From: a virus | Lineage: Duplodnaviria > Heunggongvirae > Uroviricota > Caudoviricetes | DNA length: 46,907 bases | IMG/VR virus record: IMGVR_UViG_2651869724_000014 | Reading direction: 5' to 3' (one strand) | In this document: positions 15,128 to 38,268 of the stretch, one piece after another | How the letters are laid out: the number at the start of each line of letters is the position of its first letter | Numbering within the stretch: the first letter of the stretch is position 1 | Made by a program: the position numbers and the translations under genes | The notes under the pieces: generated by a model | Seen by the model: the letters and a program-made list of their open reading frames with translations, nothing else | The model's database searches: none | Told to the model about the DNA's origin: nothing

Positions 15128-16209
15128 TGGGAAGACGAAGGAAAAATCCTGAACACGAAAAATTACCTCCAAATGTATACCCAAATAAATATAGTTATGT
15201 ATGGAAACCAACATCCAGAGAATCTGTCACACTAACCGCCATCAAGGATGGTTTAGCTGCTTTATGGAAAAAGTATGAGGAAACTGTAAATAATCGCGAT
15301 CGTGCAATGACATTCGGTCGCTTGTGGGAAAAATTCCTCGCCAGCGCCTATTACAGTGACCTTAGTCCAAGAACACAAAAAGATTATCTGCAACATCAAA
15401 AAAAGTTGCTTGCCGTATTCGGTAAGGTACCAGCGGATTCCATAAAACCAGAACACATCCGTCGATACATGGACAAAAGAGGGGAGCAGAGTAAAACGCA
15501 AGCCAACCATGAAAAAAGCAGTATGTCCCGTGTTTACAGTTGGGGGTATGAGCGAGGGTACGTCAAGGCTAACCCATGTGCAGGTGTAAGTAAATTCAAG
15601 GCCAAAAACCGCGAACGATATGTAACCGACAAAGAATACCAGGCAGTATTAAGCGTTGCACCTCTTCCTGTTTTTATCGCAATGGAAATTGCCTATCTGT
15701 GTGCAGCGAGGGTTTCCGATGTGTTATCGCTGAAATGGGAACAGATTGGAAACGACGGGATATTCATCCAGCAAGGGAAAACCGGAAAAAAACAGATAAA
15801 AGCATGGAGTCCACGATTACAGGCAGCGATCGAAAAAGCAAAACAGTTACCAAAATCTGCCTATGTGATCAGCAATCAATACGGCAACCGATATATGTAC
15901 AAAGGCTTTAACGAAATGTGGGTAGAAGCAAGAAATCGTGCTGGAAAAATTTCAGGTATTTTAACCGACTTCACCTTTCATGATCTGAAGGCGAAAGGAA
16001 TTTCAGACTATGAAGGAAGCAGCCGGGATAAGCAACTTTTCTCTGGTCACAAAACCGAAGGGCAAGTGCTAATCTATGACAGGAAGGTTAAAGTTTCACC
16101 AACACTTGATGTCCCGTTACCTGAAAATATTCCAAGAAAATATTCCAAGAAAATATTCCAAGTAATTCCAAGTGTGATTTTTGTCACTGACTTAATGATG
16201 TGTAAGTGA
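15127..16209 (+). CDS. Lambdoid prophage tyrosine integrase
   Basis: 360 aa with tyrosine-recombinase catalytic region; ends 8 bp before the tRNA-Ser 3' end. Confidence 0.85.
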   Translation: MGRRRKNPEHEKLPPNVYPNKYSYVWKPTSRESVTLTAIKDGLAALWKKYEETVNNRDRAMTFGRLWEKFLASAYYSDLSPRTQKDYLQHQKKLLAVFGKVPADSIKPEHIRRYMDKRGEQSKTQANHEKSSMSRVYSWGYERGYVKANPCAGVSKFKAKNRERYVTDKEYQAVLSVAPLPVFIAMEIAYLCAARVSDVLSLKWEQIGNDGIFIQQGKTGKKQIKAWSPRLQAAIEKAKQLPKSAYVISNQYGNRYMYKGFNEMWVEARNRAGKISGILTDFTFHDLKAKGISDYEGSSRDKQLFSGHKTEGQVLIYDRKVKVSPTLDVPLPENIPRKYSKKIFQVIPSVIFVTDLMMCK

Positions 16210-16217
16210 TTGAATTT

Positions 16218-16307
16218 TGGCGGAGAGAGGGGGATTTGAACCCCCGGTGGAGTTGCCCCCACTCCGGTTTTCGAGACCGGTCCGTTCAGCCGCTCCGGCA
16301 TCTCTCC
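16218..16307 (-). tRNA. serU: tRNA-Ser (anticodon CGA)
   Basis: Minus-strand sequence GGAGAGATGCCGGAGCGG...CTCGAAAACC...GGTTCAAATCCCCCTCTCTCCGCCA: long variable arm, CGA anticodon loop, CCA end. Confidence 0.85.
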
Positions 16308-16400
16308 GTTCAGATGGTTGCCATGATGCCAGGAAATTTGGCATTTTAACAGTCCCTGTCCGTGCAATTTTGTTCAAGTGACGAGTTTGCGAGCAAAACG

Positions 16401-17198
16401 ATGATTAAGTGGCCCTGGAAAGTACAAGAATCAGCACATCAAACTGCCCTTCCCTGGCAGGAAGCACTATCGATCCCCCTTTTAACGTGTCTGACAGAAC
16501 AGGAACAAAGCAAATTAGTCGCTCTTGCCGAACGTTTTTTACAACAAAAACGGCTTGTTCCTTTACAGGGCTTTGAGCTGAATTCATTAAGAAGCTGCCG
16601 GATAGCACTTCTATTTTGCCTGCCCGTTCTGGAGTTAGGACTGGAATGGCTGGATGGTTTTCATGAAGTCTTAATTTATCCTGCGCCATTTGTGGTCGAT
16701 GATGAATGGGAAGACGATGTCGGTCTGGTGCATAACCAACGTATTGTTCAGTCAGGTCAGAGCTGGCAGCAAGGGCCTATCGTTTTGAACTGGTTGGATA
16801 TACAAGATTCTTTTGATGCTTCTGGTTTTAACCTGATTATTCATGAAGTCGCTCATAAGCTGGACACCCGTAACGGCGATCGCGCCAGCGGAGTTCCCTT
16901 TATTCCGTTGCGTGAGGTTGCTGGCTGGGAACACGATCTTCATGCTGCAATGAACAACATTCAGGAAGAAATCGAATTGGTTGGCGAGAATGCGGCGAGC
17001 ATTGATGCTTATGCTGCCAGTGATCCTGCTGAATGTTTTGCCGTACTTTCTGAATATTTCTTTAGCGCCCCAGAACTTTTTGCTCCTCGTTTCCCTTCAT
17101 TGTGGCAACGTTTCTGCCAATTTTATCAACAAGATCCTTTGCAGAGACTGCATCGCACTAATAATACAGACTCGTTTTCGGCGACGAATGTTCATTAA
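16401..17198 (+). CDS. mtfA: Mlc titration factor MtfA (YeeI)
   Basis: [28 protein letters not shown]... matches MtfA as recalled, including IHEVAHKLD zinc-peptidase-like motif; chromosomal GC content. Confidence 0.85.
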
Positions 17199-17298
17199 TT
17201 AACAACTTTGCAGATTAATTAACCAATTGAAATGGCTTATGAAATTTAGTGTTGACAGACAAGGTACCGCTAAGTAATATGCGCCCCGTTCACACGAT

Positions 17299-17374
17299 TC
17301 CTCTGTAGTTCAGTCGGTAGAACGGCGGACTGTTAATCCGTATGTCACTGGTTCGAGTCCAGTCAGAGGAGCCA
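17299..17374 (+). tRNA. asnT: tRNA-Asn (anticodon GTT)
   Basis: TCCTCTGTAGTTCAGTCGGTAGAACGGCGGACTGTTAATCCG...GGTTCGAGTCCAGTCAGAGGAGCCA, 76 nt. Confidence 0.85.
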
Positions 17375-17375
17375 A
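17352..17375. repeat. Island attL: direct repeat formed by tRNA-Asn 3' end
   Basis: gttcgagtccagtcagaggagccaa recurs at 45796-45820. Confidence 0.6.
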
Positions 17376-17553
17376 TTTAAAGAAAGCAGACGTTCACTGA
17401 CGTCTGTTTTCTGCATTTATATCAACTGGTTATCCCCTTCTTCAGGTTCACCCTCGTTCGTTAAAAACCGCTCGAATCCACACTACTTTGCTGGTAAAAA
17501 TGCTGGTAAAGCTGGTTCGATTTGCGTTTTACCAGCACGCGGAGGGAACCGTC

Positions 17554-18822
17554 ATGTCACTTACTGATACTAAAGTAAAAAATGCCAGACCAGCGGAAAA
17601 AGCCGTCAAGCTCACTGATGGATTTGGTCTCTACCTTCTTTTGCATCCCAATGGTTCAAAATACTGGCAGTTAGGCTATCGCTTCGATGGTAAACAGAAA
17701 GTGTTTTCCATTGGTGTTTACCCTGCGGTTTCTCTTGCTGATGCCAGACAACGACGTGATGAAGCAAAAAAGCTGCTTGCTCAGGGAATCGATCCTAACG
17801 CTAAAAAACAGGCTGATGAAAAAACTCTGCAGGAAAAGCGGGATAAAACCCGTTCGTTCCGTGTCGTCGCCAGAAGCTGGTTTGCCACCAAAACAAAATG
17901 GTCTGAAGATTACGCCGATACGGTATGGAAGCGCCTTGAGACCTATGTATTCCCGGATATTGGTGACAGCAACGTTTCAGATCTGGATACGGGTGATCTG
18001 CTTGTTCCGGTAAAAAAAGCAGAAACGCTTGGCTATCTTGAAATTGCCATGCGGATCAAGCAATACATCACTGCCATCCTGCGTCACGCCGTCCAGCAAA
18101 AACTTATGCGCCATAATCCTGCTTACGATATGGAAGGTGCTGTGCAGAAACCAGAGACTGAGCACCGTCCCGCACTGGAGCTGGAAGAGATCCCCCTGCT
18201 ACTTGAACGTATTGATGCCTACAAAGGCCGTGGACTTACCACACTGGCGATTAAACTCAATCTGTTGATTTTCATTCGTTCCAGTGAACTCCGCTATGCA
18301 CGATGGTCAGAAATCGACTTCAACAGTAAGTTATGGGTGATACCAGAAAAGCGTGAAGTGATTGAGCGCGTCAAATATTCCACGCGTGGCGCAAAAATGA
18401 AACGCCAGCACTTTGTTCCCCTTTGCAGGCAGGCTCTTAAGATACTGAAAGAGATCCGTCAGCTTACCTATGAAGAAGGTAATGACGCCGGATTAATTTT
18501 TACTGGATGTTATGACTCATTCAAACCCATGAGTGAAAACACCATCAACAAGGCGCTGCGTAAGATGGGCTATGACACCACGCAGGACATCTGCGGTCAT
18601 GGTTTCCGAACACTGGCATGTAGTGCTCTGATTGAATCAGGGCTATGGTCTAAAGATGCGGTAGAACTTCAGATGAGCCACAAGGAAAGCAACAGTGTGC
18701 GTGCTGCCTATACCCATAAGGCCAAACATCTTGAACAGAGAAGATTGATGTTACAGTGGTGGGCAGATTATCTTGATGCAAATCGGGATGGGATGGTCAG
18801 GCCGTTTGAGTTTGCTCAATAA
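17554..18822 (+). CDS. P4-type tyrosine integrase adjacent to tRNA-Asn
   Basis: MSLTDTKVKNARPAEKAVKLTDGFGLYLLLHPNGSKYWQLGYRF is a P4-integrase N-terminus; ATG 17554 with GGAGGG RBS. Confidence 0.85.
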   Translation: MSLTDTKVKNARPAEKAVKLTDGFGLYLLLHPNGSKYWQLGYRFDGKQKVFSIGVYPAVSLADARQRRDEAKKLLAQGIDPNAKKQADEKTLQEKRDKTRSFRVVARSWFATKTKWSEDYADTVWKRLETYVFPDIGDSNVSDLDTGDLLVPVKKAETLGYLEIAMRIKQYITAILRHAVQQKLMRHNPAYDMEGAVQKPETEHRPALELEEIPLLLERIDAYKGRGLTTLAIKLNLLIFIRSSELRYARWSEIDFNSKLWVIPEKREVIERVKYSTRGAKMKRQHFVPLCRQALKILKEIRQLTYEEGNDAGLIFTGCYDSFKPMSENTINKALRKMGYDTTQDICGHGFRTLACSALIESGLWSKDAVELQMSHKESNSVRAAYTHKAKHLEQRRLMLQWWADYLDANRDGMVRPFEFAQ

Positions 18823-18888
18823 AAGTAAACATGGTGGTCAAAGGTTGCTTCAACTTCAATGCGGCTAAAGATATTAGCCGCATTAATA

Positions 18889-19605
18889 CTAAATCGCTAA
18901 CAGTTCTGTTTTCCAGTATTCACTACCACTTTTATCACAGACATGTGAATATAATATCCTATCCATAATCCTAACAATTTCTTTAACATTATTTAGCTTA
19001 TCAATAACAGTATCTTTTGAAAGATTAATTGAAGAATATGAATGGGCTAACTCCGTGCGGCTATCAGAGAAAGACTGGAGCATGAACTCATAATCTTTTT
19101 TACCTTTCGCAGTCATTGCTTTTAATATATCTTTGATACCAAATCTATTAAAAAGAAGTTTGATATTTTTTTTGGAAGGATATTTTTTATCCATTATCAG
19201 CTGTTTTGGGACAATAACAGGCTTTACAGGAGAATTAGGTGACGATAACGCCTGAAGTTTATCCTTACACTTATTTAAGTCACTCATCATTATTGACTCA
19301 GAACCATGAGAAACGTAATTTATAAAATTTTTCTCTTGGTTTTTGAATAAAGAAAACAAGATAATTTCATCAGGTAGATGCGAAAGGCATCCGTTATTTT
19401 GGTTCAGCATGTCAATCCAATCTTCCAAAACATCTTTAATATAATCTTCGAATGCAGCAGAAACTCGAAATATCGCGTTATTATAAACACTATGTATAAT
19501 ATCTGTTCTTAATTCTTTTATTTTTGAAACATAACGAACCTGTTCAAGCAAATTGGAATGAATCTGCTCGAATTGTTTTCTAGATGCGCTTTTAATATAT
19601 GCCAT
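18889..19605 (-). CDS. Hypothetical partner of DUF262 protein (has an Rx4H motif, possible HEPN-like)
   Basis: 238 aa; start overlaps stop of upstream DUF262 gene at 19605; contains SRTELAHSY (R-x4-H); no HNH/DUF1524 motif seen. Confidence 0.35.
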   Translation of the reverse strand: MAYIKSASRKQFEQIHSNLLEQVRYVSKIKELRTDIIHSVYNNAIFRVSAAFEDYIKDVLEDWIDMLNQNNGCLSHLPDEIILFSLFKNQEKNFINYVSHGSESIMMSDLNKCKDKLQALSSPNSPVKPVIVPKQLIMDKKYPSKKNIKLLFNRFGIKDILKAMTAKGKKDYEFMLQSFSDSRTELAHSYSSINLSKDTVIDKLNNVKEIVRIMDRILYSHVCDKSGSEYWKTELLAI

Positions 19606-20720
19606 CAGTTGAAATACCGTTCAATGAAATTTTTCATTGTGCTAATACGATAATGAACCGATTGCGTCGCCGAAGTGCCAGAAGTAATCGACTCATTAAA
19701 ACGCTCCTCTGATGTTATTCTTTGAAACTCTATTAAGAAATCCTTAAGTTTTGTTGCATCAAGTTCGTTTATCATATCCTGATTAAATTTTGATACCATA
19801 AACCCGACAATTAGAGCATCAAATAAAGCAGAATTGAAATTTCTTACTTGAGGCTCTAAGTTTTCATTTAGAATTCTAAATGCTTTTTTACCAAACAATT
19901 TATTAATACAGTTTAATGCACCAAGAAATCTACTACGCCACTCCAAGGCAACATCAGGTTCAATATTTTGTTTTTCAGAACTAAAATCATTAAGGAATTT
20001 CTTTAATGGTTTTTTATATGGTGTCACAGAATATGAAAGTGCGAATGCTCTCAATATGAGTTCATTATTCTTCATTCGTGTGTCATTTTTAATTCCTGTT
20101 AAGTCTCTCCATACTTTCTCCTCACTTATTTCGTCAATCATAGTAAATAATGGACCATGATAAACTCCATGACGTACCTCCTGAGGATTTAATTGTACTG
20201 CACCTGTATTTATTCTTTCAAAAACATCAATTTTAATTTGAGGGTGAGTTTCTTTTAATATGGTTATGCATCTCAATGTGCGATTTAAAATATGCCTACG
20301 GAATCTCGCGTCCAGTGATGAAAACGAATTCCCCTCCAATTCTGGATATGCTGTCAATCCCTGTAATTCAAAACCATCCTCAATAAATAGTTTAATTGAA
20401 GTCAACCGTTGATTACCATCAATAACAGATAAACTCTCATCTTTCTCTTGGTTTAAATAAATAACAGGGATAGGACACTGGATTATTAAAGACTCAATTA
20501 ATCTTGATGCCTGCCCTCTACTCCAAACATATTTCCTTTGAAAATCAGGAATAAACACAGTACCATTTTTCAAATAGTCGACGAGTGTTGATATTGAAAA
20601 ATCGTAAGTCTCGGTATGCAATCGACGCTGCTCAGGGGGAATATCAACGATAGAAATATCATCATCATCAAATATTGGGAAAAGTTTATCCGCAAGTTTT
20701 TTGGCATCATTAACAGACAT
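19605..20720 (-). CDS. DUF262 (ParB/Srx-like) domain protein, GmrS-like
   Basis: IPDFQRKYVWSRGQASRLIESLIIQCPIPVIYL and VIDGNQRLTSI are the DUF262 signature blocks. Confidence 0.6.
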   Translation of the reverse strand: MSVNDAKKLADKLFPIFDDDDISIVDIPPEQRRLHTETYDFSISTLVDYLKNGTVFIPDFQRKYVWSRGQASRLIESLIIQCPIPVIYLNQEKDESLSVIDGNQRLTSIKLFIEDGFELQGLTAYPELEGNSFSSLDARFRRHILNRTLRCITILKETHPQIKIDVFERINTGAVQLNPQEVRHGVYHGPLFTMIDEISEEKVWRDLTGIKNDTRMKNNELILRAFALSYSVTPYKKPLKKFLNDFSSEKQNIEPDVALEWRSRFLGALNCINKLFGKKAFRILNENLEPQVRNFNSALFDALIVGFMVSKFNQDMINELDATKLKDFLIEFQRITSEERFNESITSGTSATQSVHYRISTMKNFIERYFN

Positions 20721-20921
20721 AATAGAACCTCATAAAAATAATTTTAATATATATTACATTAATGATCATTAATAATAAACACCATCAGTAAAAGATAAAA
20801 ATTACCCGCAAACTATAAATGCGCTTATCATTGCATATGTTATATATATCACAATAACAATAAGTATTTCAATACCTTAGATTACCTTCTACATGCGAAA
20901 TTCTGATGTTGATAAAAAGTA

Positions 20922-22199
20922 ATGTTAAAGAATACCAAGGAATGTGCCAACTCTGTATCAAGTGTGACGAATGCCATTGAAAGGGCCAAGGAACTATCAG
21001 GACTCGTCGTATCACGATTAAAATCCGAAGGCATGTATGCGGTTGGTAATGTGGATGGTTTATACCTTCGCATCCGAAATCAGTCCCGTGCATGGGTTCT
21101 TTGCGTGGCTATGGGAACCCGAATCAACAATCTCGGTAGAACAGTTCCAAGACGTTTGAATATGGGGCTTGGCCCTTACCCGGAAGTCTCCTTAGCCGAA
21201 GCGCGTGACAAAGCGCGTGAGCTACGTAAACAAATCCGTAATGGTATTAATCCCCTTCAAGAAAAACACGAACAAAAAGCCCGGCAGGAAATACTGGCCC
21301 GGAAGAAAAAGACCTTTGCCGAATGTTGTGAAGAAGTGCTGGAGGTCAAAGACAGTGAGATGAAGAACAAAAAACATCTCGCGCAATGGCGTTCCACACT
21401 GGAAACCTATGCCTACCCTTTCATTGGCAAAAAGGCCGTTAGTGAAATCACCAAAGTCGATCTTCTGGCAATACTGGAACCTATCTGGTTAACCAAGAAT
21501 GAAACTGCCAGTCGTCTACGTGGACGTATTGAAACAGTGATCGATTACGCCAAGGCCAAAGAATACTTTGAAGGTGATAATCCTGCCGCATGGAAAGGTA
21601 TGCTGAAACCTCTGTTGCCTCAGCCAAGTAAAGTTCAGATCACCAAACACCATGCGGCCCTTCCCTATAACCAGATCGGCTCTTTTATGAAAGAACTACG
21701 TGAACGAAGCGGCGTTTCTCCTCGTGCGCTTGAGTTTGCCATACTGACCGCAGCACGCTCAGGTGAAATTCGTGGTGCCGAGTGGTCAGAGATCGATCTT
21801 GAAGGTAAAACGTGGACCATACCTGCAAGCCGAATGAAAGCAGCGAAGGAGCATCGAGTTCCTCTGTCTGATGCTGCTGTTGCCTTGTTAAAAGCTTTAC
21901 CACGCTTTAAGGGTATCAGTTTTGTATTCCCTGCCACTCGGAAGGGACAACTCTCGGATACGGCTTTACTGGCAGTCCTAAAGCGAATGGGATATACCGA
22001 TTTAACACAGCATGGGTTTAGATCGACATTCCGTGATTGGGCTGGTGAAACGACCAACTATCCGCGTGAGGTAATTGAACATGCGTTAGCTCACCAGTTG
22101 GCAGATAAGGCAGAGGCTGCGTATCAACGTGGGACGTTATGGCCTAAGCGGGTGGCGTTGATGGATGAGTGGTCGGGGTTTTGTCTTGCCAATGTTTAG
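20922..22199 (+). CDS. Second tyrosine integrase (int2) of the nested element
   Basis: GLYLRI...YPEVSLAEARDKAREL arm-binding N-domain and a recombinase C-domain; distinct from int1. Confidence 0.7.
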   Translation: MLKNTKECANSVSSVTNAIERAKELSGLVVSRLKSEGMYAVGNVDGLYLRIRNQSRAWVLCVAMGTRINNLGRTVPRRLNMGLGPYPEVSLAEARDKARELRKQIRNGINPLQEKHEQKARQEILARKKKTFAECCEEVLEVKDSEMKNKKHLAQWRSTLETYAYPFIGKKAVSEITKVDLLAILEPIWLTKNETASRLRGRIETVIDYAKAKEYFEGDNPAAWKGMLKPLLPQPSKVQITKHHAALPYNQIGSFMKELRERSGVSPRALEFAILTAARSGEIRGAEWSEIDLEGKTWTIPASRMKAAKEHRVPLSDAAVALLKALPRFKGISFVFPATRKGQLSDTALLAVLKRMGYTDLTQHGFRSTFRDWAGETTNYPREVIEHALAHQLADKAEAAYQRGTLWPKRVALMDEWSGFCLANV

Positions 22200-23176: not shown

Positions 23177-24097
23177 ATGATAGGAATAAAAATGATTTTA
23201 GTTATAACATCTAGCTTTGATAAAACAATTGATTACATAGTAAAAAAACATAGCATTAACAATTTTTACAGGTTAGATGTTGATAATTTCTCTGAATATA
23301 AATTTTCTTACACTAAAAAAGGATTCAGTATTGTTAATAAAAATAATAATGAATTGCTCGAGAGTGAATGCAGATCCATCTATTATAGAAAACCAACTCC
23401 TGAGAATATTATCAATAAAATTGATTCAAAATATCATAATCATTGCTTTCGAGAAGTATTCGCTTTTGTTGAAGGGATTGCTGAGTCGTTTACTGGAAAA
23501 TGCTTATCCAAGCCATCAATTATAAAAAGAGCAGATAACAAAGTATTGCAAGCAAAAACTGCAATTGATATTGGATTCACAATTCCTGATTTTATATTGA
23601 CAAATAATTTCGATTGTTTCAAAAACACTTTGACAATCAATAGCATTGTCAAACCGTTATCAAGTGGATTGATAGAAAATCAGAAAGAAAAGGAATTTGT
23701 TCAAACAAATATGGTTGACATGAATAAAAACACAGAAACATTAAAATATTGTCCAGCTTATTTTCAATCGTATACAAAAAAAGAATTCGAGGTGAGATCA
23801 ACATTCATAAATGGTAAAGATTATTCGGTAAAAATAATATCTAAAAATAAAATTGACTGGAGAAAAGACAATAACGAAATATTCTATTCAACAATAAAAA
23901 TGCCTGATACTATAAAAGAAAAATGTCTGAGGTATATGTCAGTCATGAATATTTCTTTTGGATGTTTTGATTTTATAGTTTTTGATGGTGAATGGTTCTT
24001 CTTAGAGATGAATGCAAATGGTCAATGGGCATGGCTAGAAAATGAAACGAATATTAATGTGTCAAGTGAGTTAGTGAGGTTTTTAAATGAAGTATAA
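23177..24097 (+). CDS. ATP-grasp family ligase
   Basis: VKPLSSG and C-terminal FGCFDFIVFDGEWFFLEMNANGQWAWLE are ATP-grasp-like blocks. Confidence 0.55.
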   Translation: MIGIKMILVITSSFDKTIDYIVKKHSINNFYRLDVDNFSEYKFSYTKKGFSIVNKNNNELLESECRSIYYRKPTPENIINKIDSKYHNHCFREVFAFVEGIAESFTGKCLSKPSIIKRADNKVLQAKTAIDIGFTIPDFILTNNFDCFKNTLTINSIVKPLSSGLIENQKEKEFVQTNMVDMNKNTETLKYCPAYFQSYTKKEFEVRSTFINGKDYSVKIISKNKIDWRKDNNEIFYSTIKMPDTIKEKCLRYMSVMNISFGCFDFIVFDGEWFFLEMNANGQWAWLENETNINVSSELVRFLNEV

Positions 24098-24941
24098 TTT
24101 CATTTACTTTATTATAAAATTATTAAACTTTTCATTATTATTCCACACATCATTAGATGAGAATTTTGATACTATTGAAAAAAGAAATGTTATTAATTCC
24201 ACGTCATTAAGAGTATCTTTATTATGTTTTCCTGTGGGGAGTAAAATAATATATTTATTAACTTTCAATAAAAAATCAAACCGTATTTTGGATAAATCTA
24301 ACTTCCAGTTTTTTACGAGCATACACTATGATACACTTTGCCCAAGAATATCGGGCACAAAAATTGAAGAATATGTCATGGCGTATAGTCAATATATTAA
24401 ATCAATTCTACCTAAAAGAAGGAAGGAACAAGAAGATTTTTTAAAGCAGCGCCTTTCCGAAAATAACGATAGTTTATCTAATCTTCAAAGTAAGATAACA
24501 CATTATACTACTATCACTATTGCCCTCACAGGGGCAGTGGTTTATCTACAAACCATTCTACCATCCGCAAATACAAATTTTGCAATAAGATTTATTTCCT
24601 ATTATTTATTTTTTATATTGCTTGTTGATATAATTAATTTATTTCTTTTTCTAAGAAAAGGAATGATGGTAAGTAGTTTTTCTCAATCAAGTTTTAAATC
24701 ATTAAAATTTGATAACAGTAATTATGCCTTAACGAAGGCTATATATCGTGACTGGATAGCAAGAAAAGATGACGTCAGATATTTTGCAGGTATAGTTAGA
24801 AATGCCGAAAAATATCTATACAGATCGATTTTAGTTGGAATCACGCTATACATGTTTTCCATTTCACTGCAATATTATAGCGATAATCCAGTGAATGAAA
24901 TCATATTCACGCCGTCAGGCATGTTTTTAGCTGTAAATTAA
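24087..24941 (+). CDS. Polytopic membrane protein, translationally coupled to the ATP-grasp gene
   Basis: 11-bp overlap with the ATP-grasp gene; hydrophobic segments (TITIALTGAVVYLQTILP, FISYYLFFILLVDIINLFLFL, ILVGITLYMFSISLQYY). Confidence 0.45.
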   Translation: MKYNFIYFIIKLLNFSLLFHTSLDENFDTIEKRNVINSTSLRVSLLCFPVGSKIIYLLTFNKKSNRILDKSNFQFFTSIHYDTLCPRISGTKIEEYVMAYSQYIKSILPKRRKEQEDFLKQRLSENNDSLSNLQSKITHYTTITIALTGAVVYLQTILPSANTNFAIRFISYYLFFILLVDIINLFLFLRKGMMVSSFSQSSFKSLKFDNSNYALTKAIYRDWIARKDDVRYFAGIVRNAEKYLYRSILVGITLYMFSISLQYYSDNPVNEIIFTPSGMFLAVN

Positions 24942-24952
24942 AAGGATATAAT

Positions 24953-25297
24953 ATGAAACCGTATACTATGCTCTATAGTGAATCTTTCGAAATAAACGCA
25001 TCAACAATTTCAAGTAAAACAAACTCTACCGTAAAAACATTTACCACAGAACCTAATGATGAAGATTATCTCAACACTTGGACAACGCATACAAGAGTCA
25101 TAGAGAACCAAGATGAGGATTACAGTTTAGCCCCCAGCAACTGTGAAAGAAAATACGAAATATCTAATGAAAAGCAGTCTGCTATGGATACATTTTTTAC
25201 AGAATCTATTGAAAATAATGATGATGATTTTATAGTATGTAGAACATTTGTAACAAATGTCGTTGAATCAGGTGATGATGATTTCTATTTTAACTAA
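24953..25297 (+). CDS. Acidic Thr/Asp/Glu repeat peptide, candidate graspetide precursor
   Basis: 114 aa with repeated blocks TFTTEPNDEDY, ENQDEDY, TFFTESIENNDDDF, TFVTNVVESGDDDFYF; AAGGA-type RBS; terminator follows. Confidence 0.4.
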   Translation: MKPYTMLYSESFEINASTISSKTNSTVKTFTTEPNDEDYLNTWTTHTRVIENQDEDYSLAPSNCERKYEISNEKQSAMDTFFTESIENNDDDFIVCRTFVTNVVESGDDDFYFN

Positions 25298-30412: not shown

Positions 30413-31933
30413 ATGATTAGTGAAATCACAACAAATGGCACTAAAATTAAACTAAGAAATAATAGTGCTAATGATATTAATATTTATGATATGGATTCTT
30501 TATCTTTACTTATTGGTATAAATGGTTCAGGGAAGACAAAATCCTTATGTAGCATAATTAACTATTTCTTTCCTAAAAATAACATGCAATTAACAGGCGA
30601 TTGTACAATATTAAACTCTAGCGGTGAAAGAATAGATCATACTGAAATTAGAAACTGGGGAGTTATATATTTCACCCCATTACCATTTAGACCAAAGTTG
30701 AATATTAGAGATAGTAGGTTTATTAACGCATCTCCAAGCTTGAATGGAAAAAATACTGTATTTGACCTTATCGAATACAAGGATTTAATATCTGACTTTG
30801 ATATTTATCCAAAAGTTGTTGCCATGAAGATGACAAACATTAGCAAAGTTGCAAGATTAATACTTAATATCGCTTTAAATAATAAAGATCTTAATCAGAA
30901 CAGCATACTACTGAATCACGGTCTCCTTGATATTTTGTCATTACGTGCAAAAATTGATGATAATATAGATAATGACGATTCAGACACTATAAAATATAGT
31001 ACCAATAAAAATATTCAAGCAGAAATTGATTCTATTATGCAGCGTTGCTCCGCGCATCTGATTGATGAAATACTTCATCGCGCAGGTGAAGAAAAACTCT
31101 TTTCCATATTTAGCATAATAGATTGGGCAAGTACAAAAAAACAGTTCAGTGATAACGTAGTAATTCCATTATTAAACAAACACTTAAATTTAAACATCCG
31201 TTCAAATAGAAAACTCAGAGAGACTAAATTATATTTAGAATGTGAAAGCAAAATAGATAGTTTACTTAATATTATAAAATATGAGGTAAAAAACCATGAA
31301 ATCATAAAGGATTCAAGACTTAATGAATCAACTTTAAGGTTAGAATTCGAAATAGACCCTTACGAAGGACAAAGGTTATTAACAAGATACAATTTGAATG
31401 ATATTTTTAAAATTGATTTTTCTGATATGAGTTCTGGGCAAATTGCTATTCTAGCTCAAATTGGCGCCATCTCTGACTCTATTACTAAACTGTCAGATAG
31501 AGGTATCAGATCAATACTACTATTAATAGATGAAGGGGACGCTTTTTTACATATCGATTGGCAAAGGAAATATATTTCTAATTTAAATAAAATGCTAGGC
31601 TCATTAAAAACATCTCTGGGCATAGATAATTTACAACTTATTCTAGCCTCGCACTCTCCATTGTTAGCCACAGACGTTCCCAAAGACTTTATAACTAGAC
31701 TACCAATTGAAAATGCTACGTTAAGTGGTTTTGCATCTCCTCTTTATATTTTACTAAATGAATCTTTTGGAACTAAAACCATTGGAGAATTTGCAACAAA
31801 TAAAATTGAAACCATCATCGACAAAATACCTAATAGAATACTGACTGAAAAAGATTATTACCTTATAAATAATATAGACAACCCTCTAATAAAAAGCGAA
31901 ATCGAACGCTTAATTATGCAGCATAAGGATTGA
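30413..31933 (+). CDS. ptuA: Septu PtuA-like ABC/SMC-type ATPase
   Basis: Walker A GINGSGKT, signature-like MSSGQ, Walker B LLLIDEGDAF, followed by H-loop ASHSP; 506 aa. Confidence 0.65.
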   Translation: MISEITTNGTKIKLRNNSANDINIYDMDSLSLLIGINGSGKTKSLCSIINYFFPKNNMQLTGDCTILNSSGERIDHTEIRNWGVIYFTPLPFRPKLNIRDSRFINASPSLNGKNTVFDLIEYKDLISDFDIYPKVVAMKMTNISKVARLILNIALNNKDLNQNSILLNHGLLDILSLRAKIDDNIDNDDSDTIKYSTNKNIQAEIDSIMQRCSAHLIDEILHRAGEEKLFSIFSIIDWASTKKQFSDNVVIPLLNKHLNLNIRSNRKLRETKLYLECESKIDSLLNIIKYEVKNHEIIKDSRLNESTLRLEFEIDPYEGQRLLTRYNLNDIFKIDFSDMSSGQIAILAQIGAISDSITKLSDRGIRSILLLIDEGDAFLHIDWQRKYISNLNKMLGSLKTSLGIDNLQLILASHSPLLATDVPKDFITRLPIENATLSGFASPLYILLNESFGTKTIGEFATNKIETIIDKIPNRILTEKDYYLINNIDNPLIKSEIERLIMQHKD

Positions 31934-31945
31934 AGGTCTTCATAT

Positions 31946-32878
31946 ATGATTATTTCAATTAAAAACAACTGGGAAAAAGCAATAAAATTACATACACATT
32001 ATTTAAATAATTTGATATGCAACTTTTTAAATAAATCCATTCCTAGTTCTGAAGGACGAGACGAAGCTAAAAAATTTATTCTAGATGTGCATCACCTATT
32101 AATACTTGCCGGTAAACAAGATATATTGGAGAGTATTGATATATATAGAGAGTACAAACACAGATTGTCAATAACGCCGGATATATCGAAGCAATTCGAC
32201 AAAGAAATAAGATCTATTTTTAATTACAATAAGTTTGTTAGGAAAACAGGATCATGGAATGCATATACTCTATGTAAAAAATCAATAAGCAGAACATGTC
32301 CGTATTGCAATCAAGCATATGCTTTTTCGATACAAAAAAAGAATCGCGGTTTTCGTCCTACATTAGATCATTTTTATAGTAAGGATGACTTTCCTCACCT
32401 TGCATTGGTAATTAACAATTTAATCCCAAGTTGTAGTTCATGTAACTCAAGCCTTAAAGGCACAATTGATTTCTTCGCAAATGAACATTTAAACCCACTG
32501 TGGGATGATGAAGTTATAAATTTCGTTTTAACTCATGAGGATGGTGTTTTAACATTAATAGACGGAATGATTTCATCACCAGAAAAAATAAAAATAAACA
32601 TATCTTACGATACTACAAATATTTCAATTAAAAACACAGTAAATACTTTTTTGATAAACGAAAGATATCAAGAAATGACAATAGAAGCAATAGAATTTGC
32701 AACTGCCAAATTAAATCTTGAATATGCCGTATCTACTGGAATATCATATTTCAAAAATAACTCAGAAAGTAGTATATTAAGATTTGACAAAAGAGAATAT
32801 AAAAAATATTTGCTCGGTAAATTATATTTAGATATATATAATAAAATGCCAAATGCAAATATAGTTAACACTCGTTAA
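31946..32878 (+). CDS. ptuB: Septu PtuB-like HNH endonuclease
   Basis: HNH-type motifs CPYCNQ, LDHFYSK, NNLIPSCSSCNSSLKG; 13 bp downstream of the ATPase gene. Confidence 0.65.
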   Translation: MIISIKNNWEKAIKLHTHYLNNLICNFLNKSIPSSEGRDEAKKFILDVHHLLILAGKQDILESIDIYREYKHRLSITPDISKQFDKEIRSIFNYNKFVRKTGSWNAYTLCKKSISRTCPYCNQAYAFSIQKKNRGFRPTLDHFYSKDDFPHLALVINNLIPSCSSCNSSLKGTIDFFANEHLNPLWDDEVINFVLTHEDGVLTLIDGMISSPEKIKINISYDTTNISIKNTVNTFLINERYQEMTIEAIEFATAKLNLEYAVSTGISYFKNNSESSILRFDKREYKKYLLGKLYLDIYNKMPNANIVNTR

Positions 32879-33925: not shown

Positions 33926-34414
33926 ATGGAGGAAGTAAGAGTGGAAGCAACAGGTATCGTATTTTTAGTAGTGCTCTTCGTCATTATCATGACCGCAGCG
34001 GATATACAAAAGAAAAAACACTACAACAGCTTCACGGAAGTTCTGGACGGCGACATTCTTTCGTATGAATGCCAGCAGACAGGTATTGTAATTGATACTC
34101 AAAAACATACTGTCCGTATTTTCAATAAAGATAAAGACAGCACATATACTTTTGATCAAATTCGAGAAATAAATTATACGCTTTCAGAGGGGGGTAAGTT
34201 TTATGGCAATGGAACATTACGAGGTATGAATAATGCGGCTATTGCTAACTGGAGAGAACAACTTTCAGCTAATAAACGGTCTGGCCTAAATATTTTAACC
34301 GATGATATTAAAAATCCCATGTGGAAAGTTAATGTCCCCTTGAAAAATAAAAGCACTTCAAATCACGAACTTTGCGAGCGATGGATGCTGGTATTTAAAA
34401 AGTATGTTTTCTGA
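33926..34414 (+). CDS. Membrane-anchored hypothetical protein
   Basis: N-terminal hydrophobic helix GIVFLVVLFVIIMTAA. Confidence 0.35.
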   Translation: MEEVRVEATGIVFLVVLFVIIMTAADIQKKKHYNSFTEVLDGDILSYECQQTGIVIDTQKHTVRIFNKDKDSTYTFDQIREINYTLSEGGKFYGNGTLRGMNNAAIANWREQLSANKRSGLNILTDDIKNPMWKVNVPLKNKSTSNHELCERWMLVFKKYVF

Positions 34415-34445
34415 GTCTCACCTTTCATCTATTTATGGAACAAAA

Positions 34446-34823
34446 ATGAAAAAATTATTACTTGCTATTTTTATCATATTACCACTTGGTGGCTGTACCG
34501 TTCATGGTAATAAATCCCTAACTGATGAAAATCATCAGACGGTTAAAGTTAAAATCGTCAATGGAAAAACAACCCAACAAGAAATTCTTGCTGCCTTGGG
34601 AGAGCCTCAGACACGCGCTACGAATGATGGACAGGAGATGTGGAACTACTCAAGTATGACGGGAGAAAGCCAACTATCTAACTACATACCGGGCCTTGCT
34701 CTGTTGACCAATAGCAGCACGGCACACATTAAATCACTGGATATCTGGTTTAAGGGTGATGTTGTGGAACGTTATGATTTTCGTCAGACCGCAAGTAAGA
34801 CTTCTCGCGGTTTGATGGATTAA
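34446..34823 (+). CDS. Putative lipoprotein
   Basis: MKKLLLAIFIILPLGGC lipobox. Confidence 0.4.
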   Translation: MKKLLLAIFIILPLGGCTVHGNKSLTDENHQTVKVKIVNGKTTQQEILAALGEPQTRATNDGQEMWNYSSMTGESQLSNYIPGLALLTNSSTAHIKSLDIWFKGDVVERYDFRQTASKTSRGLMD

Positions 34824-34907
34824 AAATACTATTACCATCATAACGTATTATGCGTTAATTATATATTCAGGAGTTAGACACTAACTCCTGCATTAAGTAA
34901 TCCTATT

Positions 34908-35930
34908 TTAATTCCCTGTTATTATTTTGCTTAGAATTTCGTCAATATATTCGGTTGTAACTATAAACGCATTTTTACCAATCTCACTTCGAAATATTTG
35001 GCATTCATCACTATGAAATTTACTAATGAAAAAATCAAATGAACACTGTGCTATAGCCTTATTAATACCATCCACGTTTGGTTTATCTTCTGGATTTGGC
35101 GTTGCATAAAGTAGCGAATATGAATCTAATGGAATATATATACATTTTAAATCATCATTACTTTCATAGAATGGCTTAAACTTTCGTTCCCCAGACACTT
35201 CAAAGATTACAATACTATCTCCTAAAATCAAAGATTGATTTGTTTTCAATACTTTGTAATGCATATTCTTATAAATATTACTTTTCTTATCCTCAGATGA
35301 AACCAAAACATCTAACTGAACCTTTTTTACTATTTCAGGTATTTTTGATATTATTTCTTGCTCAAACTTCGGAACTAATGTTGATAGCATCTTTTCTGCA
35401 GCATTTGGTAGCCATAATTGAACGTTATCAAAAAACATGGAGTTATATTGCTCATGTAGACTTGCTGGTATTGGTAGTTTATTTAACTCATTTTGAAGTA
35501 ATTCTTTGATTGTTTTTGGATTTCTTTGGAAATAATCAATAAGAGTTTCCTTGTCTAGCAATCTGTTTTTTAATTGCTCACCAAAATATGCCCATGAATC
35601 TATCATGTTTTCTCTTAAGTTTTTTGTTCTAATCTCCATATGATAAATAAACTCGGCTAAATCTTTCCTGTTGTCTAGGTTGTAAGTCCCATCGACTAAA
35701 CTATTAAGTATGCGTGAATAACTGTATGTTTCGTTTTCTGTTATTTTTTTATCAACGCTTGAATCGCCATAGTGAGAATAAAACTTGTTTTCCAAACCAA
35801 TATTCTCTACTATCATGTTTTCCTTGAAACAATCTTTTCTATACCAGTTAGTAAAATACTTCCCATTTTTTTCGTTAGAAAAACCTCTTTGTAAAAAACG
35901 TGGAATAAAATGTTGCCTATTCCCTGCCAT
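34908..35930 (-). CDS. DUF4238-like protein (candidate single-gene defence)
   Basis: N-terminus MAGNRQHFIPRFLQRGFS resembles the conserved DUF4238 block; GGAG RBS upstream of ATG at 35930; AT-rich. Confidence 0.45.
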   Translation of the reverse strand: MAGNRQHFIPRFLQRGFSNEKNGKYFTNWYRKDCFKENMIVENIGLENKFYSHYGDSSVDKKITENETYSYSRILNSLVDGTYNLDNRKDLAEFIYHMEIRTKNLRENMIDSWAYFGEQLKNRLLDKETLIDYFQRNPKTIKELLQNELNKLPIPASLHEQYNSMFFDNVQLWLPNAAEKMLSTLVPKFEQEIISKIPEIVKKVQLDVLVSSEDKKSNIYKNMHYKVLKTNQSLILGDSIVIFEVSGERKFKPFYESNDDLKCIYIPLDSYSLLYATPNPEDKPNVDGINKAIAQCSFDFFISKFHSDECQIFRSEIGKNAFIVTTEYIDEILSKIITGN

Positions 35931-36174
35931 TATCTTCTCCTCATAGCAAATAAATATGGACAATATATTACCAACATTCTAACTATCATCAATGATTAAA
36001 ACAGAGGAACAAAAGGATTCTCTCTCAGCGAATGGGAACAATGGAACAGCAGCGGTTTCTTCGTAATCGGACTGAAACCGTAGTATTGCATCGGAACAAA
36101 AAATTAACTTACCTTCCATCGCTCATCCTCCTCCTGTAGTTATCAGACTAAATATTTTACCAGAACATAGGTTG

Positions 36175-36597
36175 TTATCGCATTTTGATTTTTACTGATT
36201 CATATTCGTTGATGTGATCCTTAAAAGTGCTTATTGCTTTTAGCAATGACCTGTTAAGTAAACCATTAATCTCCTGTGATGTTTTCCCGTTTCTGACGAC
36301 CACTATATATCCAAGAGTCAGATCTTGTCTTATCATTGGATTCAATGGCTCTATACCTATGCTAATCCCCGTGTTTTTGTATTTAGCAACCGGATACCCA
36401 ACTGAACTATGGATAACAATATTGCCGCTATCTGCAAGCCTTGATAACATTCTGTCGCTGTATATCGTTTTTCTTAAATCCTGTAAAACAGGGATATAGT
36501 GTTTATCCATGTTTCCTGTCAAAGCTGTAGGCAAGTAGATTTTTGTTTTTATTTTTCGCATGATATTTTTCCTGTTATTGTTTTTATTTAATACCAT
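36175..36597 (-). CDS. Hypothetical protein
   Basis: ORF only. Confidence 0.25.
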   Translation of the reverse strand: MVLNKNNNRKNIMRKIKTKIYLPTALTGNMDKHYIPVLQDLRKTIYSDRMLSRLADSGNIVIHSSVGYPVAKYKNTGISIGIEPLNPMIRQDLTLGYIVVVRNGKTSQEINGLLNRSLLKAISTFKDHINEYESVKIKMR

Positions 36598-36989: not shown

Positions 36990-37930
36990 CTCATGCTTTT
37001 ACTTATTATTTTTAAACTACTTTTTGAAAAAATCTTTATCTCTGTGCTGACGCACGGCTACGCCCTGACACTGATATTTTTATTTTATTCATCTCCTGTC
37101 TTTTAAATAAAAAGAAAAGTACTCGATCATTGTTTGATCTCTTTTCCTCATGATGCTGAATTTAGATCCTATGTTTAAACATAGTTTTTCCCTTTAGACA
37201 TATAGCATTTGCTCTTAAACGTATAGGAAAACTATATCTTTGATAGCAGCACTTCGTGATTGTTGCGAACAATCACTCTGCTGAACAGGGCTTGTTCCTG
37301 TTAATGATGGATTTTTCAATTAATGATTTTTTCCATATAAATTACTGCCTGTAATCAATTACAAGCGTTTTAAGTATGAAGATAGTTATATGTGTCACCT
37401 TCATGCTTCCAACGTCTTAGCAAGCTTCCTGTGCGGTTTATTAACAGCTTATAGAAAACTATTACTTATATTTATTCTTACCTGATACATTCAATTATTT
37501 TTTTGAAAATACATACATTGTGCTGGCGCACGGCTACGCCCCTGATACTGGTATAAAAATATTTTCCTTGTTCATCTATAATGCATTAATGTTTTATCAG
37601 TGAAAAATAAATAGATCAGTATAAAGATTATTCCCTCCACCGAGTTAGAACTCAGATCTTATGCTTGAATATAACATCTTCCCTCTGACATATAGCATTT
37701 GCTCTTAAACACATAGGAAAACTATATCCTTAGTAGCAGCACTTCGTGATTGTTGCCAACAATCACTTTGCTGGACAGGGCTTGCCCCTGTTAATGATGG
37801 ATTTATCCAAAAAAAGATCGCGTCGAAGACGCATATAAATTAAAAGGAATATTAATTAAGCTCTCACACTTAAAGCAGCGGTTCGTGATTGTTCGAAACA
37901 ATCACTTCGCTGATAGCAGTTATTAAGGAA
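36990..37930. repeat. Tandem duplication of an about 480-bp noncoding unit with conserved imperfect hairpin
   Basis: 37022-37075 parallels 37502-37550; 37190-37320 parallels 37680-37810 (about 90 percent); hairpin core gtgattgttgcgaacaatcac recurs at about 37250, 37740 and 37880. Confidence 0.55.
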
Positions 37931-38060
37931 TACAATGCCCCCTGTAAAACCACTAAAACATAACGCAAAAGTAAAGCTGGACTCTCTTAACTTCTTACTA
38001 ATTATTTAATTATAAGCATAGTCCCGGACCAGTAAAATCGCGGCTTCACAACTTTTTTTC

Positions 38061-38144
38061 CTATGTTCGAACATAGCAAACTCCTATGTTCAAACATAGA
38101 TCCGTCCTATGTTCGAACATAGCAAGATCTATGTTCGAACATAG
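38061..38144. repeat. Four tandem 16-bp palindromes CTATGTTCGAACATAG at 22-23 bp periodicity (iteron/operator array)
   Basis: Copies at 38061-38076, 38084-38099 (one mismatch), 38107-38122, 38129-38144; a related copy at 37169-37184. Confidence 0.6.
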
Positions 38145-38268
38145 TTTTTTTAACATATAACATTGTCATAAGAATATACTTTCTATTTTATTTATAGTTC
38201 TACTATTGACTTTCACTTTTTTGCATAGTATTAAAATAGATATAACAAAAATAATAAGAGGGAATAAT

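Follow-up and report, generated by a model that had tools for sequence, protein, structure and literature searches.

A divergent DUF4238 gene carried as exchangeable single-gene cargo on a tRNA-Asn island of enteropathogenic Escherichia coli: a candidate one-protein defence system

What does a lone gene of the DUF4238 family do on a mobile island? The question is raised by positions 34908-35930 of IMG/VR virus record IMGVR_UViG_2651869724_000014, a stretch of 46,907 nucleotides that is referred to here, at its full length, as the window. A first-pass annotation of the window proposed that this gene encodes a DUF4238-like candidate defence protein. The analysis presented here identifies the product as a standalone cytoplasmic protein of a divergent DUF4238 clade, carried as an exchangeable single-gene cassette on an integrative mobilisable island. 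Its likeliest role, in which we place about even confidence, would be anti-phage or anti-mobile-element defence, exercised as a one-protein sensor-effector.

One member of the family is a validated defence protein. This protein, the product of one gene in the P2 prophage hotspot of E. coli TA007, was cloned as plasmid pFR101 and made cells strongly resistant to T7 only [Rousset et al. 2022, PMC9122126]; its molecular function was stated there as unknown, and later papers name DUF4238 among defence systems of unknown mechanism. (The first-pass annotation had assigned this single-gene system to satellite hotspots, but the hotspot of PMC9122126 is that of P2 prophages, not that of P4 satellites.) The window gene lies in neither the P2 nor the P4 hotspot; its carrier is a tRNA-Asn integrative mobilisable island. 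In addition, E. coli TIR systems in which a DUF4238 domain is present as well have an experimentally supported link to phage defence (Nat Commun 2024, PMC11350192); these systems need their TIR NADase domain, whereas the window protein has no TIR. A full-text literature search found no paper giving a mechanism or a structure for DUF4238.

Is the window gene a genuine, intact member of this family? The coding sequence (34908..35930, minus strand), which is identified by its open reading frame (ORF), its match to Pfam PF14022, a RefSeq entry, and an AlphaFold2 model, encodes a soluble protein of 340 residues and 39.9 kDa, MAGNRQHFIPRFLQRGFS. A longer frame (34908..35963, minus strand) opens at an upstream TTG, and it is the ATG at 35930 that gives the 340-residue protein. 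The boundaries chosen by the first-pass annotation are right because a Shine-Dalgarno sequence, GAGGAG (35937..35942, minus strand; read from the sequence), lies 6 nt upstream of this ATG, and the frame that follows is intact. No signal peptide and no membrane-spanning hydrophobic segment is present in the protein. Over 4 kb, the region is 99.9% identical to the chromosome of E. coli O127:H6 E2348/69, which makes the window a piece of the chromosome of this strain or of one very near to it, and the E2348/69 allele (RefSeq WP_000918421.1, 99.8% identical) is annotated as a 'DUF4238 domain-containing protein'. Since RefSeq already names the gene in this way, its family name is known and is not new.

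The match to PF14022 scores 48.2 bits (gathering cutoff 27, E = 1.3e-12) and aligns residues 5-287 with profile positions 1-248 of 281, leaving the last ~33 profile positions unmatched. The family had been proposed at first pass from a resemblance in the N-terminal block, with a hidden Markov model (HMM) search suggested as a check; the Pfam match passes that check and begins at profile position 1, far beyond chance. In particular, the block RQHFIPRFLQRGF (residues 5-17) shows the pattern H-x-x-[PS]-x-x-[FY]-L-x-x-F at the domain start and aligns with RHHHFLSQCYLKGF of the validated clade. With respect to PF14022 as a whole, the window protein is above the gathering threshold, but its score is modest (48 bits versus 137, or more exactly 136.7, for the pFR101 protein). 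NCBIfam and PADLOC scans of the window protein returned nothing; the PADLOC scan included the model DUF4238-Pers and gave no match at E <= 1.

How far, then, is the window protein from the one that protects against T7? The sequence of the pFR101 protein was taken from the supplement of PMC9122126, and it scores 718 bits on PADLOC DUF4238-Pers (PDLC03000). Comparison of the two proteins by BLASTP is not significant (E = 0.16). An HMM built from 30 sequences of the validated clade gives the window protein 2.0 bits, and the reverse HMM, built from the window clade, gives the pFR101 protein 26.5 bits, confined to its N-terminal ~127 residues. Alignment of the two clades with hhalign yields a probability of 90.6% and E = 1.3e-6 over 249 columns at ~16% identity. 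Judged from these comparisons, the link between the clades appears only when profile is set against profile; the window protein is a true but remote DUF4238 member that fails when tested with the 'DUF4238 defence system' model. The first-pass label stands as far as the family match goes. Because the similarity is too remote, function is not transferable from pFR101 by homology, and for the same reason the designation of the gene as a defence candidate rests mainly on genomic context, not on the family name.

What the two proteins do share is architecture. Each is a standalone member of PF14022, 300-340 residues long and with no partner, and each is carried as exchangeable cargo of a mobile element, although the carrier of one is the P2 prophage hotspot and that of the other the tRNA-Asn island. 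Common to both are a block at the N-terminus, R-x-H-[FH]-x-x-x-x-[FY]-L-x-x-G-F, conserved D/E/R positions, and a turn motif that contains D; this motif reads 'LGDS' in the window protein and 'TDNP' in pFR101, and H97, T64, and S297 are invariant residues of the window clade's own. The AlphaFold2 models are confident (predicted local distance difference test scores of 89.4 for the window protein and 89.0 for the pFR101 protein). Compared by the order of their predicted secondary-structure elements, both models run from an N-terminal strand and short helix through a beta-hairpin and a long helical insert to a C-terminal beta-sheet and helix. Together with the hhalign result, this order indicates homology over most of the length and the architecture of a canonical member. 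The helical insert has nine helices in the window protein versus six in pFR101, and the window protein also has extra C-terminal helices. Sequence profile searches of the PDB with both clades gave matches at chance level only. In BFVD there is one significant match, an uncharacterised protein of Stenotrophomonas phage Smp131, and it carries no functional information.

The clade to which the window protein belongs is large. With clusters defined at 50% identity, an exhaustive profile search recovered 2,888 cluster representatives at E <= 1e-3, of which 877 are found at E <= 1e-30; almost all representatives of the window clade are standalone proteins of ~345 residues. Closely related proteins come from E. 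coli, Salmonella, Pectobacterium, Erwinia, Lonsdalea, and Yersinia, and remoter ones from cyanobacteria and metagenomes; the clade is widespread in environmental bacteria and cyanobacteria. A plasmid search returned only two records, one a cyanobacterial plasmid and the other mislabelled and of chromosome size. Neither the window protein nor the 150 best-scoring clade representatives contain a TIR or any other recognised defence domain, and the few longer members show no recognisable added domain except a dubious beta-propeller fragment.

Conservation was assessed in 140 aligned members whose median identity to the window protein is 28%. Residues conserved in at least 95% of them are M1, G3, H7, P10, L13, G16, F17, F50, Y51, D60, I63, T64, and E67 and, further along, H97, R101, R106, L236, G237, D238, P267, and S297. 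R5 is conserved in 85-95% of the window clade, and one position that is Gly in at least 95% of the clade is Ala (A276) in the window protein. When columns are mapped by hhalign, R5, H7, D60, E67, R106, and D238 are conserved in the validated clade as well. The codons of R5-Q6-H7 (35910..35918, minus strand) mark the start of the most conserved block, as seen both in the alignments and in the hhalign mapping, and those of L236-G237-D238-S239 (35214..35225, minus strand) specify the 'LGDS' motif, which aligns with 'T-D-N-P' of the validated clade, D238 being present in both. Column entropy is lowest in residues 1-20 (1.06 bits) and highest in residues 121-200 (3.0-3.4 bits). The latter, encoded at 35331..35570 (minus strand) and helical in the model, are the most variable part of the insert.

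The same comparisons bear on whether the gene has a function at all. Between two E. coli alleles the ratio of non-synonymous to synonymous substitution rates (dN/dS) is 0.40, versus 0.02-0.2 for flanking backbone genes, and none of the 27 allele substitutions falls at a residue conserved in at least 95% of the clade; the gene is under purifying selection. A silent or decaying passenger with no current function is therefore difficult to sustain. With a GC content of 30% and an H-NS paralogue on the island, the gene might plausibly be silenced, and adjacent island genes are pseudogenes in the reference assembly. However, 89 genomes hold an intact ORF, its annotation is that of a normal coding sequence, no conserved residue is altered at a dN/dS of 0.40, and the Shine-Dalgarno sequence is strong. 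We regard the silent passenger as extremely unlikely.

If the protein is active, what might it do? The conserved polar residues would come together in one invariant site, formed by R5 and H7 of the N-terminal strand and helix, by D60, T64, and E67 at the start of the helical domain, by H97, R101, and R106, and by the LGD238 turn, which belongs to the C-terminal sheet. The most plausible chemistry of such a site would be hydrolytic or phosphoryl-transferring, with a nucleotide or a nucleic acid as the substrate. In this scheme, the helical insert, hypervariable at residues 121-200, may recognise a phage-derived cue and gate the site, which once activated would lead to growth arrest or abortive infection. 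This proposal draws on residue types, on the pattern of conservation, and on analogy with other single-protein systems. A different kind of defence factor would be one that is not an enzyme but binds, sequesters, or blocks a phage component (a polymerase, a DNA mimic, or a structural protein, for example) without killing the host. The protein has no recognisable catalytic fold, its large variable helical domain could be a protein-binding surface, and the narrow range of the validated relative, with strong resistance to T7 only, fits a specific target. On the other hand, H, D, E, R, and S/T residues are conserved in at least 95% of members at a median identity of 28%, and six are common to a clade at 16% identity; this pattern is seen more typically at sites of catalysis or small-ligand binding than at protein interfaces that co-evolve. 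A purely binding mode of action is consequently considered unlikely.

Support for a defence role comes from the position of the gene on its island. The island is assigned to the 'serU island' family of extraintestinal pathogenic E. coli (PMC8147327) because the same backbone in E. coli Nissle 1917 carries tcpC. Three related islands are collinear with the window up to 34821-34843, around the stop codon of the convergent lipoprotein gene, and again from 36039 or 36291. Between flanks that are ~91-95% identical, a 1.2-kb cassette is swapped for other cargos. Alignment with the related islands places this cassette, called slot 2, at 34824..36038 (unstranded); it consists of the DUF4238 gene together with 84 bp on its downstream side and 108 bp on its upstream side, and thus the single-gene architecture suggested at first pass is borne out by a cassette that holds the DUF4238 gene alone. 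In a census of 5,426 complete E. coli genomes, with cargo counted at coverage of at least 80%, 557 genomes match part of the 4-kb neighbourhood and 89 carry the DUF4238 gene, always on the chromosome. Four mutually exclusive cargo types occupy slot 2: the DUF4238 gene, as in the window and E2348/69 (89 genomes); a ComEA-like HhH protein with a 320-residue protein, as in Nissle 1917 (L008, 7405-9600; 196 genomes); two small ORFs of 166 and 200 residues, as in NWU_4 (L009, 4533-5706; 45 genomes); and a pair of 305 and 327 residues, as in EC42405 (L010, 4385-6452; 5 genomes).

This arrangement also speaks to the possibility that the gene serves the element itself. On that view the protein would provide a backbone function for a serU-type element, either addiction or stabilisation, or competition between mobile elements through the exclusion of rival islands, plasmids, or satellites. 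The gene does lie between the transfer and replication (RepL) modules, and two Pectobacterium homologues with 40-50% identity are found at the same position on the same backbone, where the neighbours retained are the 228-residue upstream gene, the lipoproteins of 125 and 184 residues, MobA/MobL, and DUF4756; the keeping of position and neighbours at this level of identity suggests a long association. However, most E. coli islands of the family are without the gene and have other cargo at the same point, so that it is dispensable for the element. In addition, homologues occur in unrelated contexts (prophage edges, defence islands, a cyanobacterial element), and an antitoxin-like partner does not recur. 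A backbone role is rated as rather unlikely.

The surroundings of the gene were described at first pass as AT-rich and isolated on the minus strand. AT-richness holds, since GC content is 30.1% in the gene but 36.7% in the island and ~47% in the core genome on either side. Isolation holds for the most part: the downstream neighbour at 34404-34823 (plus strand) is convergent, and upstream an ORF on the same strand (36175-36597) lies 244 bp away. Comparison with related islands shows this ORF to be part of the island backbone, the DUF4238 gene being exchanged alone; as a candidate partner it was rejected, since it is kept in islands without DUF4238, with breakpoints at 36039 or 36291. Between the convergent stop codons of the DUF4238 gene and of 34404-34823 there is an inverted repeat with a 9-bp stem, AGGAGTTAG-tgt-CTAACTCCT (34869..34889, unstranded; read from the sequence), which is a possible bidirectional terminator. 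It has no T-run, and for this reason a consensus terminator scan made no call there; the consensus promoter and terminator scan as a whole performed no better than on shuffled controls.

Where do more distant members of the clade reside? A Yersinia kristensenii homologue (39%) and another from an enterobacterium (35%) adjoin the CI repressor/replication module of P2/186-like prophages, at the junction with the host. The prophage-borne members sit directly after the CI repressor (L004, 6994-9119; L005, 5774-9035), once with an intervening 450-residue gene of unknown function. This CI-adjacent position is not the P2 hotspot locus, which in phage P2 itself holds old/tin. Homologues of ~30% identity are found among two ThsB-TIR genes, NYN, an endonuclease, and a 1,730-residue helicase matching DpdF and GajB, and others lie beside an Old/GajA-like ATPase, a PIN-MazE pair, and genes resembling type III restriction-modification. 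One homologue neighbours a DUF4238 paralogue of a third clade, HEPN_LA2681, and ApeA (PDC-S58); a cyanobacterial one is beside a KAP NTPase (PDC-S20, PifA-like) and KilA-N on a mobile element; and an Erwinia one is beside HicB and an IS3 element. Identities of these distant homologues in defence and prophage contexts range from 29 to 39%. No partner gene recurs across the 10 contexts examined. The 450-residue and 228-residue upstream genes at other loci were considered as partners and rejected; they are not conserved across contexts and have no PADLOC match.

Two arrangements among these loci may be recorded separately. In two related loci (L006 and L012, 2594-9038), the DUF4238 gene is divergently paired with the 1,730-residue protein, a fusion of DEAD and UvrD helicases. 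In a metagenomic defence island (L013, 8001-13162), two DUF4238 paralogues of different clades stand in tandem beside HEPN_LA2681 and ApeA-HEPN genes.

The recurrence of defence and prophage neighbourhoods provides guilt-by-association support for a one-gene defence module, although it is an association only. It also bears on the idea that the gene has nothing to do with phage and is an accessory of a pathogenicity island that acts in host interaction or physiology. Such a role would suit an island family known for the virulence factor TcpC (PMC8147327), in a strain of enteropathogenic E. coli, among neighbours that include lipoproteins of unknown role. Yet the protein lacks a signal peptide or transmembrane segment, the clade extends widely through environmental bacteria and cyanobacteria, and at other loci its members adjoin genes of defence or of prophages rather than of virulence. 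An accessory role of this kind is judged very unlikely.

Several observations weigh against the defence reading. The fixed position in Pectobacterium looks more like that of a long-resident gene than of freely shuffled cargo. As judged by sequence, the window clade is undetectable with the defence-system HMM, so that homology cannot carry function over to it. A tblastn search with the window protein and a prophage-borne clade member against 50,697 phage records gave no match, and no phenotype is on record for any member of the window clade. With regard to chemistry, the near-neutral isoelectric point of 5.97 does not suggest a classic nucleic-acid binder; and because neither clade has a solved structural relative that could be found and there are no informative domain fusions, the proposed chemistry is read solely from the types of residue conserved. 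Finally, slot 2, although variable, is no more than a candidate defence slot, since its alternative cargos match no known defence family.

Is slot 2 nevertheless comparable to known hotspots? Hotspots of defence cargo on mobile elements have been described for P2/P4 (PMC9122126) and for the Pseudomonas PAPI-1 island (PMC12629846). Slot 2 is like them in having conserved flanks, mutually exclusive cargos, and recognisable defence modules elsewhere on the element. It differs in that the carrier belongs instead to the serU-island family and that none of its other cargos corresponds to a known system: their six proteins have no PADLOC match and a single Pfam match, the HhH motif. These alternative cargos are candidates for new functions. 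Slot 2 of the serU-island family was not described as a defence hotspot in the literature searched.

A second slot, just after mobQ, is also variable (slot 1; window 30413-32878, compared with L008, 2596-5133; L002, 1-1004; and L003, 11799-14024), and here recognisable systems do occur. In the window, slot 1 contains an AAA_21/AAA_15 ATPase and HNH-like pair, which matches the PADLOC candidate PDC-M62 (PDC-M62A/B) and, more weakly, Septu PtuA/B. In Nissle 1917 it contains tcpC with a TIR protein and a macro-domain protein, and in Pectobacterium a PARIS-like pair of AAA_15 and DUF4435. Because the contents of slot 1 differ in this way, the 'virulence factor' TcpC occupies the site of defence-type modules in sister islands. 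A bolder proposal can be built on these features, namely that a second, larger DUF4238 clade (~880 clusters at 50% identity), missed by current defence annotators, is a distinct one-protein immune enzyme whose fold and chemistry are without a solved precedent, that slot 2 is an unrecognised defence hotspot whose other cargos are new defence systems, and that the slot occupied by TcpC in uropathogenic strains also serves defence. We consider this possible but doubtful.

The remainder of the island provides the setting for both slots. It is ~28.4 kb long and is bounded by a 25-nt repeat of the 3' end of tRNA-Asn. The tRNA-Asn gene (17299..17375, plus strand; ARAGORN) contributes its 3' 25 nt (17351-17375) as the attL copy of the direct repeat, and attR, the right copy (45796..45820, plus strand), is an exact match, with 0 expected by chance. 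The tyrosine integrase (17488..18822, plus strand) is identified by Pfam Arm-DNA-bind_3, Phage_int_M, and Phage_integrase and by RefSeq. It is followed by a GmrSD_N/DUF262 protein, which matches PADLOC NsnA at 277 bits and PD-T4-2_A at 148 bits, and its HEPN partner (18889-20720). Other genes of the island encode PilV and a pilin, a MobQ/MobA-MobL relaxase, two lipoproteins, a DUF4755 protein, RepL with iteron-like repeats, DUF4756, an H-NS paralogue, a PIN_12 protein, and DUF6387.

Several stretches of the island can be described further. Across 17488-22199, the first integrase precedes the GmrSD_N/DUF262 and HEPN_RiboL-PSP genes, on the opposite strand. Next comes a second integrase ORF (20922-22199), which is intact at 425 residues in the window but a split pseudogene in NC_011601.1; the island looks composite. 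At 23177-25297, where the GC content is ~29%, an MvdD-like ATP-grasp gene is followed by two ORFs without a family match, and the stretch could be a peptide-modification cluster of the graspetide type or else a further cargo module. Repeats abound from 37043 to 38147, upstream of repL (38206): four tandem units with the palindrome CTATGTTCGAACATAG, ~22-23 bp apart, at 38059-38147; a 160-nt sequence that occurs twice (37158-37317 and 37648-37807); and a 40-nt unit in three copies. The repeats look like iterons or operators of a RepL-type origin. The H-NS paralogue (40545-40949) is full-length, with both Histone_HNS_N and Histone_HNS, and might modulate silencing of the AT-rich element. At 41292-42644, a 212-residue ORF without a family match is followed 3 nt later by the PIN_12-domain protein; neither matches PADLOC, and the two may be a toxin-antitoxin or defence pair.

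The island is 99.8% identical in NC_011601.1 (E2348/69), but there it occupies a different tRNA-Asn gene; the window island is on the mtfA/serU side, with an invasin-like pseudogene beyond attR (stretches compared: 16203-17383, 39310-41935, and 45796-46813). In addition, NC_011601.1 lacks a 2.6-kb segment of the window that holds DUF4756, the H-NS paralogue, and the 212-residue ORF. These differences suggest that the island was recently re-integrated or that copies of tRNA-Asn recombined.

What the analysis adds is not a new kind of system, since existing annotation assigns the gene to DUF4238 and lists of defence systems already include the family; what is new is a large clade that PADLOC DUF4238-Pers does not detect, with a variant motif set and an expanded insert, in a previously undescribed exchangeable slot. 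The conserved site (H7, D60, E67, R106, and D238) and the variable insert offer concrete targets for mutagenesis. Should the protein prove inactive against phage, it would be a warning about passing 'defence' labels across a Pfam DUF at 16% identity. Activity of the window clade, on the other hand, would extend the recognised family far past the one that PADLOC DUF4238-Pers finds. In that case the serU-island family would carry exchangeable immunity cargo in two slots, with several further candidates among its contents, and this would give a different view of a classic pathogenicity island that is common in extraintestinal and enteropathogenic E. coli and best known for TcpC.

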